Notes: generated by a model from the letters alone, not told the origin. 64,000 nucleotides of DNA from Candidatus Poribacteria bacterium (GCA_028821605.1 JAPPFM010000016.1:5785-69784); one strand, 5' to 3'. Positions 7,558-44,014 are shown, numbered from the stretch's first letter. Numbers and translations: made by a program.

Positions 7558-8238
7558 ATGAGAGTAACTATCACAGTGCCGAAGTTAGCGGCGTTAAGTC
7601 TCGTTGTGCTTTTCGGTTTGGCACTTTCGCTACCGACGTATGCGGGTACCCAATTGTGGGACTTTGAAGAAAAGCACGATGACTGGAAAGTTGCCAACGG
7701 AAATTGGGAAATTGCAAAGGGAGTCTATCACGTTGACAAGGGTGGACAAGCGGAACACTCTCTCGTTGGTGAAGAGGACTGGGATGATTACACCATTGAG
7801 GCGAAGGTTCGATTGGATAATCACCATTGGGCGGGTATTGTTTTTCGCGCCGAAAGCGAGATGGAGTACTACGTCTACTATCTCAATGTCCCAAATAACA
7901 AAACGGAACTCTGGCGACACAAAGATGGTGCCTGGAATGCCCGCGACAATGTCGCGCAAATCCCAGCTGTTGAGAAGGTCCAAATAAAGAACGGCGAATG
8001 GATTGATATGAAGGTTGTCGTTGAGGGTAGTGAATTTCAGATTTATCTGAACGGTAAACTTCAGGGTGAACATAAAGATGATGTCTACAAAACCGGCCAA
8101 GTCGGTGTGTGGGCATGGGAAACCGAGGCGAGTTTTGATGATTTCACCGTTAGCGGTGATAATATTAAGGACACCCTTGCCGTTGACCCGAATCGCAAGT
8201 TAGCAACAACATGGGGTCGTCTCAAACGGGTTTACTAA
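7558..8238 (+). CDS. Secreted DUF1080 (3-keto-disaccharide hydrolase/LamG-like jelly roll) protein with C-terminal ..LATTWGRLKRVY tail
   Basis: Signal peptide. Motifs: WKVANGNWEI..G.Y..HSLVG..DWDDYTIEAKVRLD..WAGIVFRA. Paralogous to 8385..9053. Confidence 0.65.
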   Translation: MRVTITVPKLAALSLVVLFGLALSLPTYAGTQLWDFEEKHDDWKVANGNWEIAKGVYHVDKGGQAEHSLVGEEDWDDYTIEAKVRLDNHHWAGIVFRAESEMEYYVYYLNVPNNKTELWRHKDGAWNARDNVAQIPAVEKVQIKNGEWIDMKVVVEGSEFQIYLNGKLQGEHKDDVYKTGQVGVWAWETEASFDDFTVSGDNIKDTLAVDPNRKLATTWGRLKRVY

Positions 8239-8384
8239 TTTGGCATAAGGTTTAGCCTCAGAAGTTTTCTACGTGAAAACCACGTTGAAGACTTTTGAGG
8301 CAACTTTAATTTGCGTCTATAGTCACGCTTGAGTATTTTCAAAGCGTGACTCCAGACAAGATTAAATTAAAAAGGAGTGAAAAT

Positions 8385-29354: not shown

Positions 29355-29400
29355 AAAATTACGCAACCGTTTTGACCGAAATACGCGTCATTATATATTG
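29355..29400 (+). promoter_or_regulatory. ECF-type promoter, variant of the shared motif (ACGCAACCGTTTTG-N10-CGCGTCATTATATAT)
   Basis: Member of a 13-copy conserved promoter family. Sits 37 nt upstream of 29437. Confidence 0.5.
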
Positions 29401-29436: not shown

Positions 29437-31059
29437 ATGGAAACTTTGAATACCTATAAAGAATCAACAACTAACAAAATCACGCTCAATCTTGATGGCA
29501 ACGCCGAAGTGTCTGTGAAAGGCTTCATCGCTCCAATTGAGAACACCCTGTCCAATTTTCATGTCGAGTGGGATGCATTGGCACATCTACGCGTCACTGA
29601 ACCAGAAAAACGCTATCCAGTATCTGTTTTTCGAGCATTTCTTCCGAACAAGCCTGTTTCGGTAGGCGACCTTTGGCAAATTGAAGAAGCCAGCGTCCTT
29701 GAATTGCTCCAGCAACTTCATCCCGATCCGACTTTGGATATGCACATTAATTCTGGCGATTCCCGTGGATTGTGGGCATGTCTGCGCGCTTACAACGATC
29801 AGTTTGCCGAGATCGTTTTTCGGATTCATGCGGAGTTCAAGTTAGAAGGAGGTTGGTTTACACCGTCGCAGTTTGCGGGCACTCTCGTTATTGATAGGAT
29901 TGAACAGCGTGTTGTATTTTTTGAGATGTACGTCCCAGAAAGTACTGTGAATTTTGATCTCAACTGGACGAGTGCTGATGCTGGCTTCTGCTCGCAGATG
30001 GAACTCCGTGCTGGGACACAGGATATTATTCGAGAGATTGAATTCACAGAAGCCATCACCTATGAGGCAGCGAAGCACTCCTTAATACTGTGTTTCTACG
30101 AATCGGCGCGGATTAACTGGGTGCCACCGAGTCAGGTGTTAGAGACAGCACAAGCACAACAGAAACCGATTCATGCTATATCCATAGATGGACCCTTAGC
30201 AGATGAGTCGTGCTGAGGGAGTGGAAAAGGTTTGAGAGCAGTTGCTCTCTCTGATGAACAGAATATAGCGTTCTTGAACGAAAATTTCATCAACACTTGG
30301 GTATCGAATGTTGAATTAAGAAGGACACCGAGGAAGCGTGCCTTCATGACACGGCGGTTTCAAGATGAATCCAAGACATTTGACAGAAGTTATCCTTTGG
30401 CACAGGCTATCATGAAGGGGTGGAGCGAGCATTCACCCGTGGATTGTTTGATTCTCTCGCCGGAACTTGAGTTGATGGGCAGTATGCCTGTTAACGATTT
30501 CTTTGATACCGAATTGGAAGGACTTGGGGATGAGGAGGCGTATCTTTTCTTTCTTGAAGCATCGTTAACCGGGAAAAAACCCGGATTGGATGGTAGCACT
30601 TTGAAACCTCAGCCAACAACTGATTGGAATGCTTTTTTCAATTCAGGGACTGTTGTGAACAGTTTGAAAGTTGCGCTCACCCATGAGTGTCCTGAACAAG
30701 AGGTATTGAACATTTTTCGGACACCAGAATCTGGCTATCAAGATTATACCGTCACTGAGGTTGATACAACGGCATTTGAAAATGGCGGCACGCTCATTGT
30801 TGATATATCAGTAGGAGGTGCTGAACCTGCAGGGTCATTTGATTTATACAGTGGGGATAGCGAATTACCCACTGAAGGTGTGCCTCAGGACGCACTCGGC
30901 TCGGCATGGGGTGTTCCGCCTTGTAAAACGGGAATTATTAGGTATCCGTTTGAGCGAGGTGGGTTTTTTAAGTTGGGTGCTACTGGTGATTGGTTCAGTG
31001 AGAAGGGGAGTATCAACGCTTTTCTCGCTAAAGTTTCCGTGAAATCTGAAACGGAATAG
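29437..31059 (+). CDS. Candidate Cys-Sec selenoprotein, paralog 1: ORFs 29437..30216 and 30232..31059 joined by an in-frame UGA at 30214 (..DGPLADESC-U-GSGKGLRAVALSDEQ..)
   Basis: Both ORFs are in the same frame and separated by 15 nt. The downstream ORF has no ATG (only a TTG). The Cys-UGA sits where the thioredoxin-fold CxxC would be (beta-strand PIHAISIDG before, helix ..NIAFLNENFINTWV.., cis-Pro-like SPVDCLILSP after). A conserved hairpin lies 17 nt 3' of the UGA. The C-terminal domain is shared with the sensor of the 41739 sigma fusion. Confidence 0.5.
30234..30249 (+). promoter_or_regulatory. Candidate bSECIS hairpin GAGAGC-AGUU-GCUCUC
   Basis: Perfect 6-bp stem 17 nt after the UGA, conserved in all three paralogs. 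Confidence 0.4.
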
Positions 31060-31080: not shown

Positions 31081-32622
31081 GTGATAAACCTTTGTAATGT
31101 ACTAAATAGTTCGACACGTCTACAGGTGCATGCACATTGGGATCCTATTGCGGATTCTACGTTTAATATGCACAAAGACTCACCAGAACTCACTGAGTTA
31201 TTTGACCTGTCTCCAAATCAGCCTGTCAAGGAATACGGGATAGATGTTTTCAATGCGTTCCTTCCACCATCAACTGTAGCGGTAGGAGATGTTTGGGAAC
31301 TTGATCCGAACAGGCTTATTTCCTTCTTTCATCAGTTTCATCCCGGTGCGACCACAGCCGTCTATCACGGGGCGGAAGGTGCGTTCGCATGTTTGCGTGC
31401 GTTTTCATCGGATTACGCTGAGGTCGCTTTCCGAATTCATGCTGATTTCACACTGGAGAGCGCTGCCTATAAGGCGTGGCAAGACGAAAACTCGTCGGAG
31501 GACGATGATAATAAATCCCGTTTTGTCCCTTCTCATTTTGTTGGACGGTTGTTAATCAATCTGAAAGAAGGGACAGTTCGAGCGTTTTCATTTTATCTTC
31601 CTCCACGCAATAGTAACGTTATCATCAGTGCCTTTGGTGGTATTGACATGGTATTTGTGCCGCGCATGGAACTCCTCACTACAGATGAAACCGATCAGGA
31701 CGAAATCGCGTGGGACGCTGCTATCACAACGGAAGAGGCACACCGCACCTTGGAACTGAAGTTCTACAAATTCGCGGAGGTTGATTGGCTCCCGATGGAT
31801 AAGGCGGTCGCACAGGCGAAAGCAACCAATCGTCCGATCCATGCAATCTCGGTCTGGGGGTGCTTAGACAATGAATCGTGCTGAGCGAACGGCAAGTATT
31901 TGAGGGCGGGTCCGCTCTCCGATCCAGAGGTTATAAGAACGCTCAACGAAAAGTTTGTCAATACGTGGGTGCTCCTCCGAGAATTGCCGGAACTGATAAG
32001 TGGTGCAAAAGGGGAGGCAGTTAGTCTCGTTGCTAAAAAAATGAAACACCACTATACGGACTCTGTAGACATCCTTGCACTGACTCCCGATGCGGAAGTT
32101 ATCATGCATCAACCGGAGATGGCACTGCCTTACAAGAATCAGGCACAAGCGTACCTATCAGTGTTACAGCATACTGTGAGTACGTTTGAAGGGAGACGTA
32201 TTCGTGTTGGACAAGGGTCAAAATTAGATGGAAATCCAATCAGTTTGGGGACGGAGTTAATGGAGGTCTTGCAGGTTTTTCGCGCTTCTGATACCGATAT
32301 GCCGAATTACACGGTCGTTGAAATTGATACGACATCGTTTGAACGCGGCGGGATACTTCACATTGAGATACAAGTCGGAACAGGTGAGGCAGCAGGGACG
32401 TTTGAGTTGTTTGATGCCGATGCCGAAATTCCTACAGAAGGTGATACAGATGAAGCACTGGAAGGTGCATGGGACGTTCCGCCCGGTGGTATAGGGCATA
32501 TCTTCCACGATTTTAGACGGGGTCGGCGTTTTAAGTTGGTCGCTACGGGTTCGGAGAATCAGGCAAACTGCACCAATGCTTTTCTGGCGCGTGTTTCTGT
32601 CGTCCCACCGTTTGAAAAATAG
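31081..32622 (+). CDS. Candidate Cys-Sec selenoprotein, paralog 2: ORFs 31081..31884 and 31900..32622 joined by an in-frame UGA at 31882 (..VWGCLDNESC-U-ANGKYLRAGPLSDPE..)
   Basis: Same architecture as paralog 1: same frame, a 15-nt gap, TTG-only downstream start, a hairpin 17 nt after the UGA. Confidence 0.5.
31902..31919 (+). promoter_or_regulatory. Candidate bSECIS hairpin GAGGGCG-GGUC-CGCUCUC
   Basis: 7-bp stem with one G-U pair and a GGUC loop, 17 nt after the UGA. Confidence 0.4.
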
Positions 32623-32794
32623 AATATATTATCTTAGCCTATCTGTCAACGTCGGACTGCATGTCCACGTTTCTATTCAACAAGCATGCGTTCGACGTTG
32701 ATTTTCAACATTCACCTCCGTTTTTATTCTCAAACCCACCAAAGTACATACCAAATTGGTAATTTTGTGTCCGATTTCTCTAATTTTTTTGAAA

Positions 32795-38349: not shown

Positions 38350-38396
38350 GAAAAATTAGGCAACCGTTTTGTCAGTCACCCGCGTCACTATATATC
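38350..38396 (+). promoter_or_regulatory. Shared ECF-type promoter
   Basis: Identical core, tandemly duplicated unit. Confidence 0.5.
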
Positions 38397-38515: not shown

Positions 38516-39583
38516 ATGAAGCGCAAAGTTGTTTTTCCTTGTTCAAGAGATAAAGGTTATGTTAAGTTTGCAGTGTTAAGTTATATGATCAGTGCTCTAC
38601 TTGTGTTCAGTAGCAGTACTTCTGTGTGGGCAAAAGCCCCGGCGACAGCGAAAATTGTGTTTATGTCAAAGCGAGATGGCAACGCCGAAATCTATATCAT
38701 GAATCCTGATGGGAGTGAGCAGGTGAATTTGAGCCAGCACCCTGCAGCAGATTATGATCCGGCTTGGTCACCGAACGGAAAACATATCCTATTCAGTTCT
38801 GATCGAGACGGTGGCGTTTTCGATTTATACCTTATGGATGCAGACGGCAGAAATGTCCAGAAGGTGTTTGAAAACAGCGCATATAGAAGAAATCCAAATT
38901 GGTCGCCTGATGGTAAACAGATTGTCTATGCGCAGGGAGATCCACAAAAGGCAAAACTACACTTTGGATTACGACTCATCCCACTAGCCGATCTCACGCT
39001 TTATGTTGCAACACTAAAAGGGGACTCTGTTGAGAAATTAACGGATGGGTTTATGCCGAGTTGGGTGATTGATGGCAGCGAAATAGCCTTTGTGGTGGGT
39101 GGCATCGAACATACGCCGCTGGGTATTTTCGACTTGCAGACGCATATCCAAAAGATGCTTCTCTTGAAGGAGATGCCTTGGATAATTCATCCGAGCTGGT
39201 CCCCACAGGGGGACAAAATCGCCTTCACGGAAATCAATAGGGCAGGGTTTGATGGGCAAGAATTTCTTTCGTTTGAGGACTCAGCACTCTACATAACGAA
39301 TAACGATGGAATAGGACTTCATCAGATAACTAAAGATGAAGAAGACTTCCCTTCTGAGCCCACTTGGTCTCCACACGGCGATGAACTCATTTACACAGCT
39401 TTAGTCTTGGAACCGGGTAAAGGTGGGGCACAACTTTTCAAAACGGACCTGAACGGTGGTAATCCAACGCAACTGACACACGACGGTAGTAACTCGAGTC
39501 CGGATTGGTTTGACCCAACATTAAGCGTTTCACCTTCGGTACAATTATCAACGATGATGTGGGGAGAAATCAAAGCAGATTAA
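38516..39583 (+). CDS. TolB-like PD40 beta-propeller protein, paralog 3, C-terminal ..VQLSTMMWGEIKAD tail
   Basis: Same architecture. Immediately followed by selenoprotein paralog 3, probably in one operon. Confidence 0.7.
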   Translation: MKRKVVFPCSRDKGYVKFAVLSYMISALLVFSSSTSVWAKAPATAKIVFMSKRDGNAEIYIMNPDGSEQVNLSQHPAADYDPAWSPNGKHILFSSDRDGGVFDLYLMDADGRNVQKVFENSAYRRNPNWSPDGKQIVYAQGDPQKAKLHFGLRLIPLADLTLYVATLKGDSVEKLTDGFMPSWVIDGSEIAFVVGGIEHTPLGIFDLQTHIQKMLLLKEMPWIIHPSWSPQGDKIAFTEINRAGFDGQEFLSFEDSALYITNNDGIGLHQITKDEEDFPSEPTWSPHGDELIYTALVLEPGKGGAQLFKTDLNGGNPTQLTHDGSNSSPDWFDPTLSVSPSVQLSTMMWGEIKAD

Positions 39584-39606: not shown

Positions 39607-41610
39607 ATGAAAATCTTAACAATGGGACTGCTCATTCTGGTAGTGATGGGTGGACAACTGAGTGCTGATGACCACTCGGCAACTAACAACAAAATTACAC
39701 TGAGTCTTGATGGGGCATCAAAAGTGTTAGTAAAAGGCTTCATCGCCCCAATTGAATATACACAATACAACTTCCATGTGGATTGGGACGAATTGGCGAA
39801 CCTACGGGTTGCTGCGCCAGAGAAAAGGTATCCAACGTCGATTTTCCGTGCTTTTCTGCCCTCCGAAGCGGTTTCTGTCGGCGACCTCTGGCAGATTGAG
39901 GAAGAGGGCACGCTGGAATTACTGAGGCAACTGAACCCCAACCCGAGGCTGGACCTGGACATCAATGCGGGAGATTCCCGCGGACTATGGGCATGTCTGC
40001 GCGCCTACAATGATGAATTTGCTGAGATTGTATTCCGCATCCATGCAGAATTTGTCTTAAACGACGGGCGATTCACTCCCTCTCAGTTTACAGGATATCT
40101 TGTTATTGATCGAATTAGAGAGGAGATTGCCGCCTTCAAGATGTATGTTCCTGAAGGTATACTGAATTTTGATGTCGGACGAAACAGCACCCGAGCTATA
40201 GATGTCGGTTTTTGTCCGCAAATAGAACTCCGTACGGGGAAGCAAAATGTTGTGCGAGAGAGTAAGTTCACAGAAGCCATCACGCACCTGGAAGCGGAAC
40301 GCTCTCTAATACGACGTTTCTACAAATCGCAGCAGATCGAATGGGTATCTTTAGAGGAGGCATTGGAGATGGCACCAGCACAAGGGAAGCCGGTTCACGT
40401 TATCTCCATAGATGGACCTCTTGCGGATGAGTCGTGCTGAGGGAGCGGAAAGACTTTGAGGGCAGGTGTCCTCTCCGACGACCGAATTATAAAGTACTTG
40501 AACGAAAATTTTATCAACACTTGGGTCCCCAATTCTGAATTAGGTCGCGTCCCAAGTTTGCGGGAACCGATTACCAAGAGACGCGAACGCGAATCCAAGA
40601 CGTTTGACACAACGCATGCTTTGGCACAAGCTATTATGGAGAGTTGGAAGAAAGGTTCCCCTGTAGATTGTTTTGTTATATCACCAACATTTGAATTAAT
40701 GGGGAGGCAACCTGTCAATGAACTTCTTTTTGATGGTGGAAACACACCGCGACATTACTTGACGTTTCTCCAGGAGTCTTTGGCAGGAAAGCTCCCTGGG
40801 TTTGGTGAGGATACCTCGCAACCTCCACCAGTACCTGATTCGGAGGCTTTTTCTGAATTAGATGCTGCTATGTCAAAGGATTTGAAAGTTATACTCACGA
40901 GTGAAAGACCTAAGCGGGAAGTTCTCAACATTTTTCGGACACCAAAATCAGGATACCAAGATTATACTGTCATTGAAATTGACGCTACAGCGTTTAAGGG
41001 CGAGGGGTTACTTACTATTGACATCTTGGTAGGGAGTGCTGACCCCGAGGGGTCGTTCGACCTTTATGATGGTGACACTGAACTCCCTACACGGGGTACG
41101 CCTCATAGCGCGCTCGCCTCTGCATGGGGTGTTCTCCCCGGTAAAAAGGGAACAATCAAGTATCGTTTTGACCGGGGGAAAGTTTTTAAGTTGGGCGGTA
41201 CTGGCAGTTGGTTCAGTGAGGAAGGGAGTATCAACGCTTTTTTGGCGAAAATCTCTGTTGAATCGGATCAGGAACCGGAGCCAAGAAAAGAGGCATCGGC
41301 GCGCTCAGAGCAATCTGCGGAAGATGTAATGAACGCTTTCGTGGAAGCATTCAAGAATCTTGACGCAGAAGTAATACTTTCGATGCTTACAGAGGATGCC
41401 AAAGAAACATTTGGAGATAATTTTCAGGATGTGCCAGAGGATGTGCGTACGCAGATGCGTCAAATGTTGCGTCAGATGGAGGTTTTGAGCAGCGAATATG
41501 TGGGTAATGAATTCCATTTTCGATTAAGAGTGCCGATGGCACAGCCGCCCGAGAAATCTGTTAAAATGCGAAAAGTGGAAGGTATCTGGCGCATTTATGA
41601 TATTGAGTGA
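39607..41610 (+). CDS. Candidate Cys-Sec selenoprotein, paralog 3: ORFs 39607..40440 and 40456..41610 joined by an in-frame UGA at 40438 (..DGPLADESC-U-GSGKTLRAGVLSDDR..). Has N-terminal signal peptide and extra C-terminal extension.
   Basis: Same frame, 15-nt gap, TTG-only downstream start, a hairpin 17 nt after the UGA. N-terminal MKILTMGLLILVVMGGQLSA signal peptide. Confidence 0.5.
40458..40473 (+). promoter_or_regulatory. Candidate bSECIS hairpin GAGGGC-AGGU-GUCCUC
   Basis: 6-bp stem with one G-U pair and an AGGU loop, 17 nt after the UGA. Confidence 0.4.
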
Positions 41611-41738
41611 TTCAAAGTGCGGTGCGTGGAATGACATGTATAAGCAGGTTGGACGAAGGTCTATGGATTTTCGTCCAACCTAACGGATCCACTATCATTC
41701 TTAAGGATTCTCCAAGTTTAGTTCTTTGGAGGTAATGG

Positions 41739-43067
41739 ATGAAGAACGACGATGTTGAACTGATTCAAGACAGTCTCATAGGCGATGAAAACGCGTTTGC
41801 TACTTTGGTAAGAAAATACCAAAAGCATGTCCACGCGCTTGCGTGGCGGAAGATTGGCGATTTCCATGTTGCTGAAGAGGTCACACAGGATACCTTTTTG
41901 CAAGTCTATAAGAAACTGGCAACACTAAAGGATCCGCATCGTTTTGCTGGGTGGCTTTATAGAATTGCTGCGCGTCAATGCCACGCGTGGTTGAGAAAGA
42001 AGCGGATGCAGACGCAATCGCTGGAAGACACAGACCCCGAACTGATAGAAAGGATGACGTATTCTCAATATATCGCCGAGGAGCAGGAGAGAGCTGCGAC
42101 TGACGCGCAGCGCGACATCGTCCAAAGATTGCTTGCCCGGCTGCGGGAGAGTGAACGCACCGTCGTCACACTCCACTACTTCGGGGAAATGACGGTTGAA
42201 GAGATTAGTCGGTTTTTAGGTGTGTCGGCGAGTACCATTAAAAGTCGGCTCCGTCGCGCGCGACACCGCTTAAAGAAATCGGAACCCATGATCCGAGAGG
42301 CACTGGAAGGTTTCCAAATTAGGGCGAATCTCACCGAAAATATCATGCAAGAGATTTCCCGTATGAATCCTACACCGCCTTCCTTTAGCAAACCATTTAT
42401 ACCGTGGGCGATTGCGGCTTCAACGCTTGTCCTCGTTGTGATGGCATTTGGAGCCAGCAATCAGTACCTAACACGTTTCCAACAGCCTTACAATTTTGAT
42501 GCGCCATCGGAGATGACGATAGAACTCATTGACACACCTATTGTTTTGGATCTCGCGTCGAAACCGGATGTGCGGACACAACTCGGGAAGTCTACGGAAA
42601 CCCCCAGTAAAGGCAGTGAACTTGCCCCGAACACAGATCAACCGGAATATGTGCCGAGGTTTCTCTCAGCACAGGCAAAGAAGGTTGTCCTCAACGATCA
42701 AGAACCTTCGCAGCAGGTCTTGAGCATTTTGCGAACACCGGCGGCAGGTACGCAAGATTACACTGTCGTTGAAATCGATGCGACAGCGTTTAAAGATGGT
42801 GGTGTACTCACGATTGATCTCTGGATTGGGAGCGCAGAGGCTGCTGGTGCGTTTATTCTGTTCGCGAGCGACAGCGAATTTTCCACGGACGGTATGCCTG
42901 AAGTTGTACTCACCTCGGCATCAGGGATCATCCCCGGTAAAGCGGGGAGAATCACGCACCGTTTTGACGAAGGCGAGCACTTTAAATTAGGTGCTACCGG
43001 TAATTCGTTCAGTGGAGAAGAAAAGGTCAATTCTTTTCTCGCAAAAATCTCTGTAGACGCTGAATAA
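41739..43067 (+). CDS. ECF sigma factor fused via a single TM helix to an extracytoplasmic domain homologous to the C-terminus of the adjacent selenoprotein candidates
   Basis: Sigma70 region 2 (..HALAWRKIGDFHVAEEVTQDTFLQVY..) and region 4 (..ISRFLGVSASTIKSRLRRARHRL..). TM helix (WAIAASTLVLVVMAFG). Conserved juxtamembrane RFQQPYNFDAPSEMTIELIDTPIVLDL. C-terminal ..ILRTPAAGTQDYTVVEIDATAFKDGG..FKLGATG..FLAKISV domain. Confidence 0.75.
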   Translation: MKNDDVELIQDSLIGDENAFATLVRKYQKHVHALAWRKIGDFHVAEEVTQDTFLQVYKKLATLKDPHRFAGWLYRIAARQCHAWLRKKRMQTQSLEDTDPELIERMTYSQYIAEEQERAATDAQRDIVQRLLARLRESERTVVTLHYFGEMTVEEISRFLGVSASTIKSRLRRARHRLKKSEPMIREALEGFQIRANLTENIMQEISRMNPTPPSFSKPFIPWAIAASTLVLVVMAFGASNQYLTRFQQPYNFDAPSEMTIELIDTPIVLDLASKPDVRTQLGKSTETPSKGSELAPNTDQPEYVPRFLSAQAKKVVLNDQEPSQQVLSILRTPAAGTQDYTVVEIDATAFKDGGVLTIDLWIGSAEAAGAFILFASDSEFSTDGMPEVVLTSASGIIPGKAGRITHRFDEGEHFKLGATGNSFSGEEKVNSFLAKISVDAE

Positions 43068-43970: not shown

Positions 43971-44014
43971 AGAATCATGCACCCTTTTCGTCTCTAAGTA
44001 GCGTCACTATAGGG
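43971..44014 (+). promoter_or_regulatory. ECF-fusion-type promoter, proximal copy (CAGAATCATGCACCC...AGCGTCACTATAG)
   Basis: Second tandem copy. A TGGTATAAT extended -10 also lies at 43955. Confidence 0.45.

Follow-up and report, generated by a model that had tools for sequence, protein, structure and literature searches.

In a 64,000-nt stretch of DNA from Candidatus Poribacteria, which are sponge symbionts (the whole stretch is referred to here as the window), an extracytoplasmic function (ECF) sigma factor fused to a transmembrane (TM) helix, sig1, ends in a sensor domain homologous to a domain of three candidate selenoprotein genes, sel1, sel2 and sel3. A sel gene and a sigma fusion of this kind are paired in related Poribacteria, and the conservation of this gene order strongly suggests a functional link between them. 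Overall, under the best explanation, which we favour tentatively and with somewhat less than even confidence, sig1 would be a tethered ECF sigma factor that shares a module with the selenoproteins and controls the sel operon in the manner of RsgI/SigI. A sequence-only reading of the window had proposed a signalling link of this kind; the coordinates of sel1, sel2, sel3 and the sigma fusion hold, as does the position of the sigma fusion directly downstream of sel3 (Table 1). No paper linking Poribacteria to ECF sigma factors or to this selenoprotein family was found in a literature search, and the domain family, the selenoprotein family and the sigma-fusion family of Poribacteria all appear to be undescribed.

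When the C-terminal part of sig1 (aa 301–442) was compared with the selenoproteins by BLASTP, it matched sel3 with 54.7% identity over 128 aa (E = 1e-45), sel1 with 51.6% identity over 128 aa (E = 7e-42) and sel2 with 43.9% identity over 114 aa (E = 1e-25). Smith-Waterman scores of 347, 327 and 226 compare with a mean of 28–29 for 1000 shuffles (sd 5, maximum 57), which corresponds to z = 40–60. The four copies in the window share 38 invariant columns, and their alignment has a single one-residue gap, in sel2. The homology between the sig1 sensor and the sel domains, as first noticed in the sequence-only reading, is beyond doubt. That reading also had the domain end all three selenoproteins, but in sel3 it is followed by a 113-aa tail resembling NTF2/SnoaL proteins.

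None of the four copies had a match in Pfam, PPC included, and a profile built from all four had no relevant sequence match in the PDB. An AlphaFold2 (AF2) model of sig1 aa 305–442, based on 86 sequences (predicted local distance difference test score (pLDDT) 89.8, predicted TM-score (pTM) 0.84), is all-beta with nine strands. The folds nearest to the model are PliG and collagen-binding/PPC-like modules; further structural neighbours include the jelly-roll of Tk-SP subtilisin, the claudin-binding domain of C. perfringens enterotoxin, CorA/MopE, GOLD domains and CBM6, and identity to these neighbours is just 7–14%. On this model the domain, of ~120 aa, is predicted to be an uncharacterised beta jelly-roll that can be superposed on members of the PPC, collagen-binding and PliG groups. 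With PliG, PPC and the clostridial collagen-binding jelly-rolls it shares a likeness of fold alone, so that the modelled structure would indicate its fold class and not its function.

The fusion of an ECF sigma factor to a TM segment, likewise part of the sequence-only reading, proved to be real. Pfam assigns Sigma70_r2 to aa 23–89 of sig1 (52.2 bits) and r4_2 to aa 126–178 (56.5 bits), and the protein scores 30.3 bits against Sigma70_ECF (cut-off 21.1) and 99.7 bits against the NCBIfam model TIGR02937 (cut-off 42.9). With sigma2 and sigma4 as its only sigma domains, sig1 is an ECF (group 4) member of the sigma-70 family. A Kyte-Doolittle scan identified the single TM segment, which lies ~38 residues past sigma4 and is followed by ~200 aa. 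Within these ~200 aa, the jelly-roll is extracytoplasmic as claimed, but it is not the whole of the extracytoplasmic part, since a 45-aa juxtamembrane segment and a linker of ~37 aa precede it. Because the host is Gram-negative, the sensor would face the periplasm, unlike that of RsgI.

Six paralogous ECF sigma-TM fusions lie within ~22 kb of the window (starts at 41739, 44113, 49330, 52516, 58375 and 63626). An alignment of these six paralogs showed 60–64% identity across the sigma, TM and juxtamembrane parts, joined to unrelated sensors: the jelly-roll in one, a BNR/sortilin-type propeller in two and a WD40 propeller in two, while the sixth fusion is cut short where the window ends. The juxtamembrane segment is common to all the paralogous sigma fusions, whichever sensor they carry (tblastn matches to the sigma-TM part show 53–60% identity), and is a candidate module for proteolysis or signal transmission. 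All six have nearly the same recognition regions in sigma2 and sigma4, so they probably recognise a single promoter class, with cross-talk likely among them; the arrangement suggests that many inputs feed one promoter class.

The genomic distribution of the domain was assessed by a tblastn census of the window and 73 related loci (1.34 Mb from the GTDB species set, all Poribacteria). This returned 215 intact copies of the jelly-roll, 158 of them in sel paralogs and 57 at the ends of sigma-TM fusions; no third architecture occurred in the 1.34 Mb or in the window. The 57 copies in sigma fusions form one clade. A sel gene directly precedes the sigma fusion in 53/53 cases with usable upstream sequence, the other four being at contig ends, and in L001 and L002 the sigma ATG follows the end of sel after only ~25 nt. 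Together with a promoter-like motif placed upstream of sel and not of sigma (described below), this adjacency and this short gap are what make the proposed sel–sigma link a strong suggestion. The smallest conserved layout comprises a GH32 gene on the opposite strand, a sel gene and a sigma fusion with the jelly-roll. Larger islands add sel genes interleaved with genes for secreted PD40, LamG, dienelactone hydrolase and WD40 proteins, followed by more sigma-TM fusions. In the loci examined, the sigma-adjacent sel gene encodes a signal peptide, so both copies of the jelly-roll would be periplasmic.

Stand-alone WD40 genes alternate with sel genes in many of these islands (L021, L023, L024, L026, L029, L033, L034 and others). 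As WD40 propellers are also the sensors of some sigma fusions, this hints that a rule by which the sensor corresponds to one domain of a secreted protein encoded nearby may extend past the jelly-roll. Loci of a second type lack a sigma gene and hold as many as nine sel paralogs in tandem (L055, L059, L061, L068, L069, L071 and L073).

The motif was found by k-mer enrichment upstream of sel genes and then used in a position weight matrix scan. It is 44 nt long (GAATTAGGCAACCGTTTTGTCnGTTnCCCGCGTCACTATATAT) and consists of GGCAACC-N17-GCGTCAC followed by TATATAT. Its information content is concentrated in two elements, AAC and CGTC, spaced by 18 nt, and a bipartite pattern of this kind is the usual signature of ECF promoters. 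The scan of the related loci gave 114 matches, all on the coding strand. The gene downstream was a sel gene in 51 cases, a LamG gene in 21, a PD40 gene in 18, another sigma-TM fusion in 17 and u168, a 168-aa open reading frame (ORF), in one, with six unassigned; it was never a sigma gene with the jelly-roll sensor (0 matches). Besides the two copies listed in Table 1, the window has copies at 32794, 33828, 35655, 36993, 52431 and 63542 and a weaker one at 43972, and the window copies precede sel1, LamG, the 168-aa ORF, three PD40 genes and three sigma fusions.

The motif nearest to a jelly-roll sigma gene thus precedes sel, either directly or with PD40 in between, and its consistent absence directly upstream of the sigma gene points to an operon in the order promoter, optional PD40, sel and sigma. 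Within the window, the first gene of the likely operon is PD40-3, which ends 23 nt before sel3. The sel–sigma pair is probably co-transcribed, judging by this arrangement. Motif copies directly upstream of the paralogous sigma fusions have the look of autoregulated ECF genes, and the jelly-roll sigma factor appears to be autoregulated through the sel-led operon. The sel3–sig1 spacer of the window, at 129 nt, is an insertion relative to L001 and L002. A sigma-specific promoter within it was considered and rejected, because this insertion is absent from close relatives and carries just a hairpin (Table 1). Some relatives (L008, L012, L056 and L064) have the hairpin, but L001 and L002 do not; it could serve in attenuation or mark a site of mRNA processing.

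In each of sel1, sel2 and sel3, a (D/N)ESC motif is followed by a single in-frame TGA that breaks the reading frame. Across the 73 loci, TGA occupies the aligned position in 157/157 readable sel members, and a Cys codon was found at 0/157 of these sites. Reassignment of UGA was rejected: sel3 itself ends at TGA, so the codon has not been reassigned. Past the in-frame codon lies a hairpin resembling a selenocysteine insertion sequence (SECIS), which spans +20 to +35 from the first base of the UGA (17 nt past the codon) and has the apical loop AGGU, AGUU or GGGU in different members of the family. Pairing is preserved in 96.6% of cells over 123 distinct sequences, with 11 double changes from G-C to A-U, some of which combine a synonymous change of an Arg codon with a Val-to-Ala replacement. 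The hairpin beats all slid registers, and 0/500 shuffles reach the observed values. Bacterial SECIS elements are recognised by a hairpin just past the UGA whose small apical loop includes a G (PMC1088965), and these features are present here. The coding sequence is conserved on both sides of the UGA, and the jelly-roll beyond it is kept in frame. At the sequence level, support for selenocysteine (Sec) at these sites is strong. The window contains no tRNA genes; Poribacteria are among the phyla listed with Sec-containing hydrogenases (PMC13582414).

The predicted sel3 product comprises a signal peptide (aa 1–20), an N-terminal domain of unknown fold, a putative thioredoxin-like region around Sec, the jelly-roll and the NTF2-like tail. 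The family is large (2232 database matches) and unannotated, and gave no usable sequence match in Pfam, NCBIfam or the PDB. A single sub-threshold match to a thioredoxin-like profile was obtained (Thioredox_DsbH, 15.7 bits against a cut-off of 27), and 0/70 sel members matched any thioredoxin-like family. In one sel clade, marked by a 30-aa insert, Gly takes the place of Sec in the motif DEAC-G-ASGK (P0280, P0334 and P0366; 557–606 aa), and a Sec-containing form of this clade was found at L076:9395-11071. The AF2 model of P0280 had a pLDDT of 61.7, with values <50 around the active site, and was not used for a fold search; the order of secondary structure in this low-confidence model is compatible with a thioredoxin fold.

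Most sel paralogs open with a classical signal peptide (MKILTIGLLILV...NA|D), which sel1 and sel2 of the window lack. The start of sel1 corresponds approximately to the mature start of the secreted paralogs and lies 37 nt past the promoter motif, and some sel2-type orthologs have a lipoprotein signal. The NTF2-like tail is present in many, but not all, of the sigma-adjacent sel genes (tblastn map). At L076:6301-7896, a sel paralog without a jelly-roll has the tail straight after the thioredoxin-like region, so that the jelly-roll and the NTF2-like tail would be exchangeable C-terminal modules. Several sel paralogs have two consecutive jelly-rolls (at 7890-8297 and 8397-8747 in L059, and in P0121).

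Table 1. Coordinates of the sel–sigma region within the window, counted from its first nucleotide.
Feature	Position	Strand	Description
Promoter-like motif upstream of sel1	29356..29399	+	score 50.1
sel1	29437..31059	+	leaderless paralog; TGA 30214; jelly-roll 30691..31050
sel2	31081..32622	+	divergent leaderless paralog; TGA 31882; jelly-roll 32263..32601
Promoter-like motif	38353..38396	+	AAATTAGGCAACCGTTTTGTCAGTCACCCGCGTCACTATATATC, score 71.8; nearest upstream of PD40-3, sel3 and sig1
PD40-3	38516..39583	+	secreted PD40/TolB-like beta-propeller; Pfam PD40 E = 6.9e-23
sel3	39607..41610	+	candidate secreted selenoprotein, 668 codons, motif ADESC-U-GSGK
In-frame TGA of sel3	40438..40440	+	read as selenocysteine
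SECIS-like hairpin	40458..40473	+	GAGGGC-AGGU-GUCCUC, 6-bp stem
Jelly-roll of sel3	40909..41268	+	from BLASTP, four-copy alignment and census
NTF2/SnoaL-like tail of sel3	41275..41610	+	weak Pfam SnoaL_2 match
Intergenic hairpin	41647..41680	+	perfect 11-bp stem (GGTTGGACGAA...TTCGTCCAACC), once in window
sig1	41739..43067	+	442 aa: ECF sigma, single TM helix, extracytoplasmic jelly-roll sensor
TM segment of sig1	42396..42458	+	aa 220–240, FIPWAIAASTLVLVVMAFGAS; sole hydrophobic TM stretch
Juxtamembrane segment of sig1	42459..42593	+	aa 241–285, extracytoplasmic, conserved
Jelly-roll sensor of sig1	42705..43064	+	aa 323–442, C-terminal 120 aa

The two kinds of jelly-roll have long been separate. 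The 57 sigma copies cluster together, with no sel-type copy among them, and have a mean identity of 71% across 57 species. An apparent sel gene with a sigma-type domain in the clustering was rejected, as it was a contig-truncated sigma fusion (L036). The identity of a sigma copy to the sel copy of its neighbour (0.513) equals that to the sel copies of other loci (0.516), so there is no concerted evolution between neighbours; these values and the monophyly of the sigma clade also led to rejection of the idea that the sigma copy arose by a recent duplication of the sel copy beside it or was converted by it. Within the sigma clade, S395, G396, K401, G403 and S432 are fixed at 100% and I373 reaches 75%. 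This pattern marks the sensor copy as an old, separately constrained version of the domain, with what is predicted to be an altered surface.

This history bears on the alternative that there is no signalling link at all, and that a module-swapping sigma-TM family captured the jelly-roll of the adjacent sel gene by local recombination, to be used in a generic role such as a spacer, envelope anchor or stabilising element. The six fusions in ~22 kb with their unrelated sensors on a common sigma-TM-juxtamembrane chassis would fit such a history, as would the mobility of the jelly-roll across many architectures (see below). A short ORF of 135 aa beside an insertion sequence element with a DDE_3 transposase (P0006, L077:4001-4408) is also relevant: its first ~45 residues are sel3-like and the remainder is a sigma-type domain, so that it looks like a deletion produced by recombination between two domain copies, and this chimeric remnant would show that such recombination occurs. 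However, the domain of the sigma clade, with its 71% mean identity and several invariant positions, has long been under purifying selection of its own, the adjacency of sel and sigma is invariant, and transducers of the BlaR1 type place the same domain in a sensor position. We therefore regard the absence of a link as quite unlikely.

Outside this pair of genes, the domain is a rare yet mobile module. When 1.84 billion cluster representatives were searched exhaustively with HMMER, 328 clusters matched at an E of 0.001 or better, and the architectures of 64 long representatives were scanned. Eight of the 64 are M56 transducers of the BlaR1 type with the domain as their extracellular C-terminus (P0135, P0173 and six more), and five are caspase-like peptidases that end in it. 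The remaining architectures include an S9 peptidase with PD40 repeats, proteins of the TPR, TIR and CsgG-like kinds and small secreted forms that consist of the domain by itself, and some carriers come from Planctomycetota and Syntrophobacteraceae. Individual carriers include caspase-like P0163 and P0197, and P0138, which has PD40 repeats and an S9 peptidase (L074 and L075). The sequence-only reading had allowed that a domain common in many unrelated proteins of this genome would count against it: promiscuity is seen beyond this genome, in M56 proteins, caspases, an S9 peptidase and TPR and TIR proteins of other bacteria, but not in the window and the 73 loci, where the two architectures are the only ones. 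The M56 proteins would represent an independent employment of the jelly-roll as a sensor module.

Among the 64 representatives scanned, P0133, which is divergent, is the sole sigma fusion. In this lineage (P0133, L076) the sigma architecture is the same and is flanked by sel genes, and the sensor keeps both Trp residues and the sel-type residues, with 66% identity to the sel domains and 50% to the main sigma clade. The use of the domain as a sensor in M56 proteins and the sel-like sensor of P0133/L076 both count in favour of the RsgI/SigI-like explanation.

Taken together, the origin of the sensor suggests, without proving, that the sigma factor senses what the neighbouring selenoproteins bind. 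Under the RsgI/SigI-like explanation that we favour, the sigma gene would be the last in an operon composed of an ECF-type promoter, an optional PD40 gene, sel and sigma, and its product would be kept inactive at the inner membrane. The periplasmic jelly-roll of the sigma factor would share its ligand or partner with the selenoprotein jelly-rolls, or recognise a related one; its occupancy would alter the conserved juxtamembrane segment, and regulated proteolysis would then free the sigma domain. Once freed, the sigma domain would drive the GGCAACC-N17-GCGTCAC promoters of sel, PD40, LamG and its own operon, giving positive feedback. We infer all three of the shared ligand, the proteolytic release of sigma and the reading of the motif promoter by sig1.

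Several observations weigh against this explanation. In the main sigma clade, residues that are conserved in the sel copies have been exchanged: W395 is replaced by S (100%), D396 by G (100%), W423 by A or S and D373 by I, whereas in the wider family the Trp at W423 is invariant and the W395-D396 position is usually an aromatic residue followed by Asp; with such conserved residues replaced, an identical binding mode is doubtful for the main sigma clade. The paralogous fusions, with almost the same sigma2 and sigma4 regions, have the motif too, so that sel may answer to several sigma factors. The lack of signal peptides in sel1 and sel2 means that the jelly-roll is not strictly periplasmic. Lastly, the stretch of sig1 that leads from sigma4 to the TM helix gave no match to an anti-sigma domain of the FecR, zf-HC2/ZAS or RskA kind in Pfam or NCBIfam.

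The replaced residues could also be read in another way, in which the partner of the sensor is not an external ligand but the C-terminal jelly-roll in the secreted product of the upstream sel gene. The sigma factor would then monitor how much complete selenoprotein is in the periplasm, and indirectly the selenium supply, and adjust transcription of the operon; the jelly-roll of sel lies downstream of the UGA, so only the fully translated, Sec-containing protein carries it. The genes stand side by side in every case with usable upstream sequence, and the sigma-adjacent sel product has a signal peptide in the loci examined. Substitutions strictly conserved in the sigma clade, one of which exchanges an exposed Asp for a hydrophobic Ile, are as expected of a complementary protein interface, the structural neighbours PliG, enterotoxin C-domain and GOLD bind proteins, and two tandem jelly-rolls occur in some sel paralogs (P0121). 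Against such pairing, the sigma copy is no closer to that of its neighbour than to those of other loci, the upstream sel gene in L076 lacks the jelly-roll and the domain occurs singly in many unrelated architectures. On balance we consider this product-feedback reading unlikely. A stronger form of it, in which the sigma fusion checks selenoprotein quality or supply because the pairing engages only a protein with Sec inserted, tuning the sel/PD40/LamG island to selenium availability or to the periplasmic selenoprotein load, would be very unlikely.

The closest parallel to the explanation that we prefer is the RsgI/SigI group of Clostridium thermocellum. There, the GH10 sensor of RsgI6 shares 57% identity with Xyn10D, and transcription from the xyn10D promoter is activated by SigI6 (PMC4711584). 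As in that group, where RsgI6 carries GH10 and RsgI1/2/4 carry CBM3, the sensor has a paralog among the modules of the controlled proteins (57% identity there, 55% here); several paralogous systems with different sensors, autoregulated promoters and a conserved juxtamembrane element are further points in common (PMC4711584, PMC10328401, PMC10556640). The two differ in that an ECF-group sigma factor is here fused directly to the TM helix and sensor, while a separate anti-sigma factor accompanies SigI, and in that the controlled proteins are of a Sec-containing redox type here and glycoside hydrolases there. RsgI_N and SEAL domains were not detected in sig1; the 45-aa segment was not compared with SEAL domains.

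Single polypeptides that combine an ECF sigma factor, a TM helix and an extracytoplasmic domain are known from IutY of Pseudomonas putida (ECF243), for which proteolytic activation has been shown, and from ECF52 (SCO4117 of Streptomyces coelicolor), for which it has been proposed and which ends in a carbohydrate-binding domain (PMC8999054). By contrast, sig1 has neither a FecR-type nor a zinc-finger anti-sigma domain, and its sensor, phylum and gene context are different. This lack of a recognisable anti-sigma domain, together with the ~38 residues between sigma4 and the TM helix, would be compatible with an unchanged signalling link but a different output, in which the sigma factor is never released and works while tethered, like ToxR/CadC, or the fusion acts mainly as a membrane sink that titrates core RNA polymerase or a partner. 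A sigma factor must join core RNA polymerase, however, IutY is released by Prc and RseP (PMC8999054), and a juxtamembrane segment common to all paralogs fits a shared processing site; an output of this kind strikes us as improbable. In M56 proteins of the BlaR1/MecR1 type, from Planctomycetota and other phyla, relatives of the jelly-roll likewise form the extracellular C-terminus, but their output is a zinc protease that cleaves a repressor, not a tethered sigma factor, and they have no penicillin-binding domain.

For the uncultured Poribacteria, these results provide a concrete candidate for a regulatory circuit, with a defined promoter motif, a defined sigma factor and a defined set of target genes. 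They also add a selenoprotein family, apparently undescribed, with a Cys-Sec dyad, 100% retention of UGA and no Cys homologs, and a jelly-roll that recurs on two unrelated kinds of transducer, tethered ECF sigma factors and M56 proteases of the BlaR1 type. If the fusion did check its selenoprotein, it would be a sigma factor that reports the success of translational recoding. A sensor copied from the protein that it regulates is best known from clostridial RsgI and, if this is also true here, the principle would extend to tethered ECF sigma factors in a Gram-negative symbiont.

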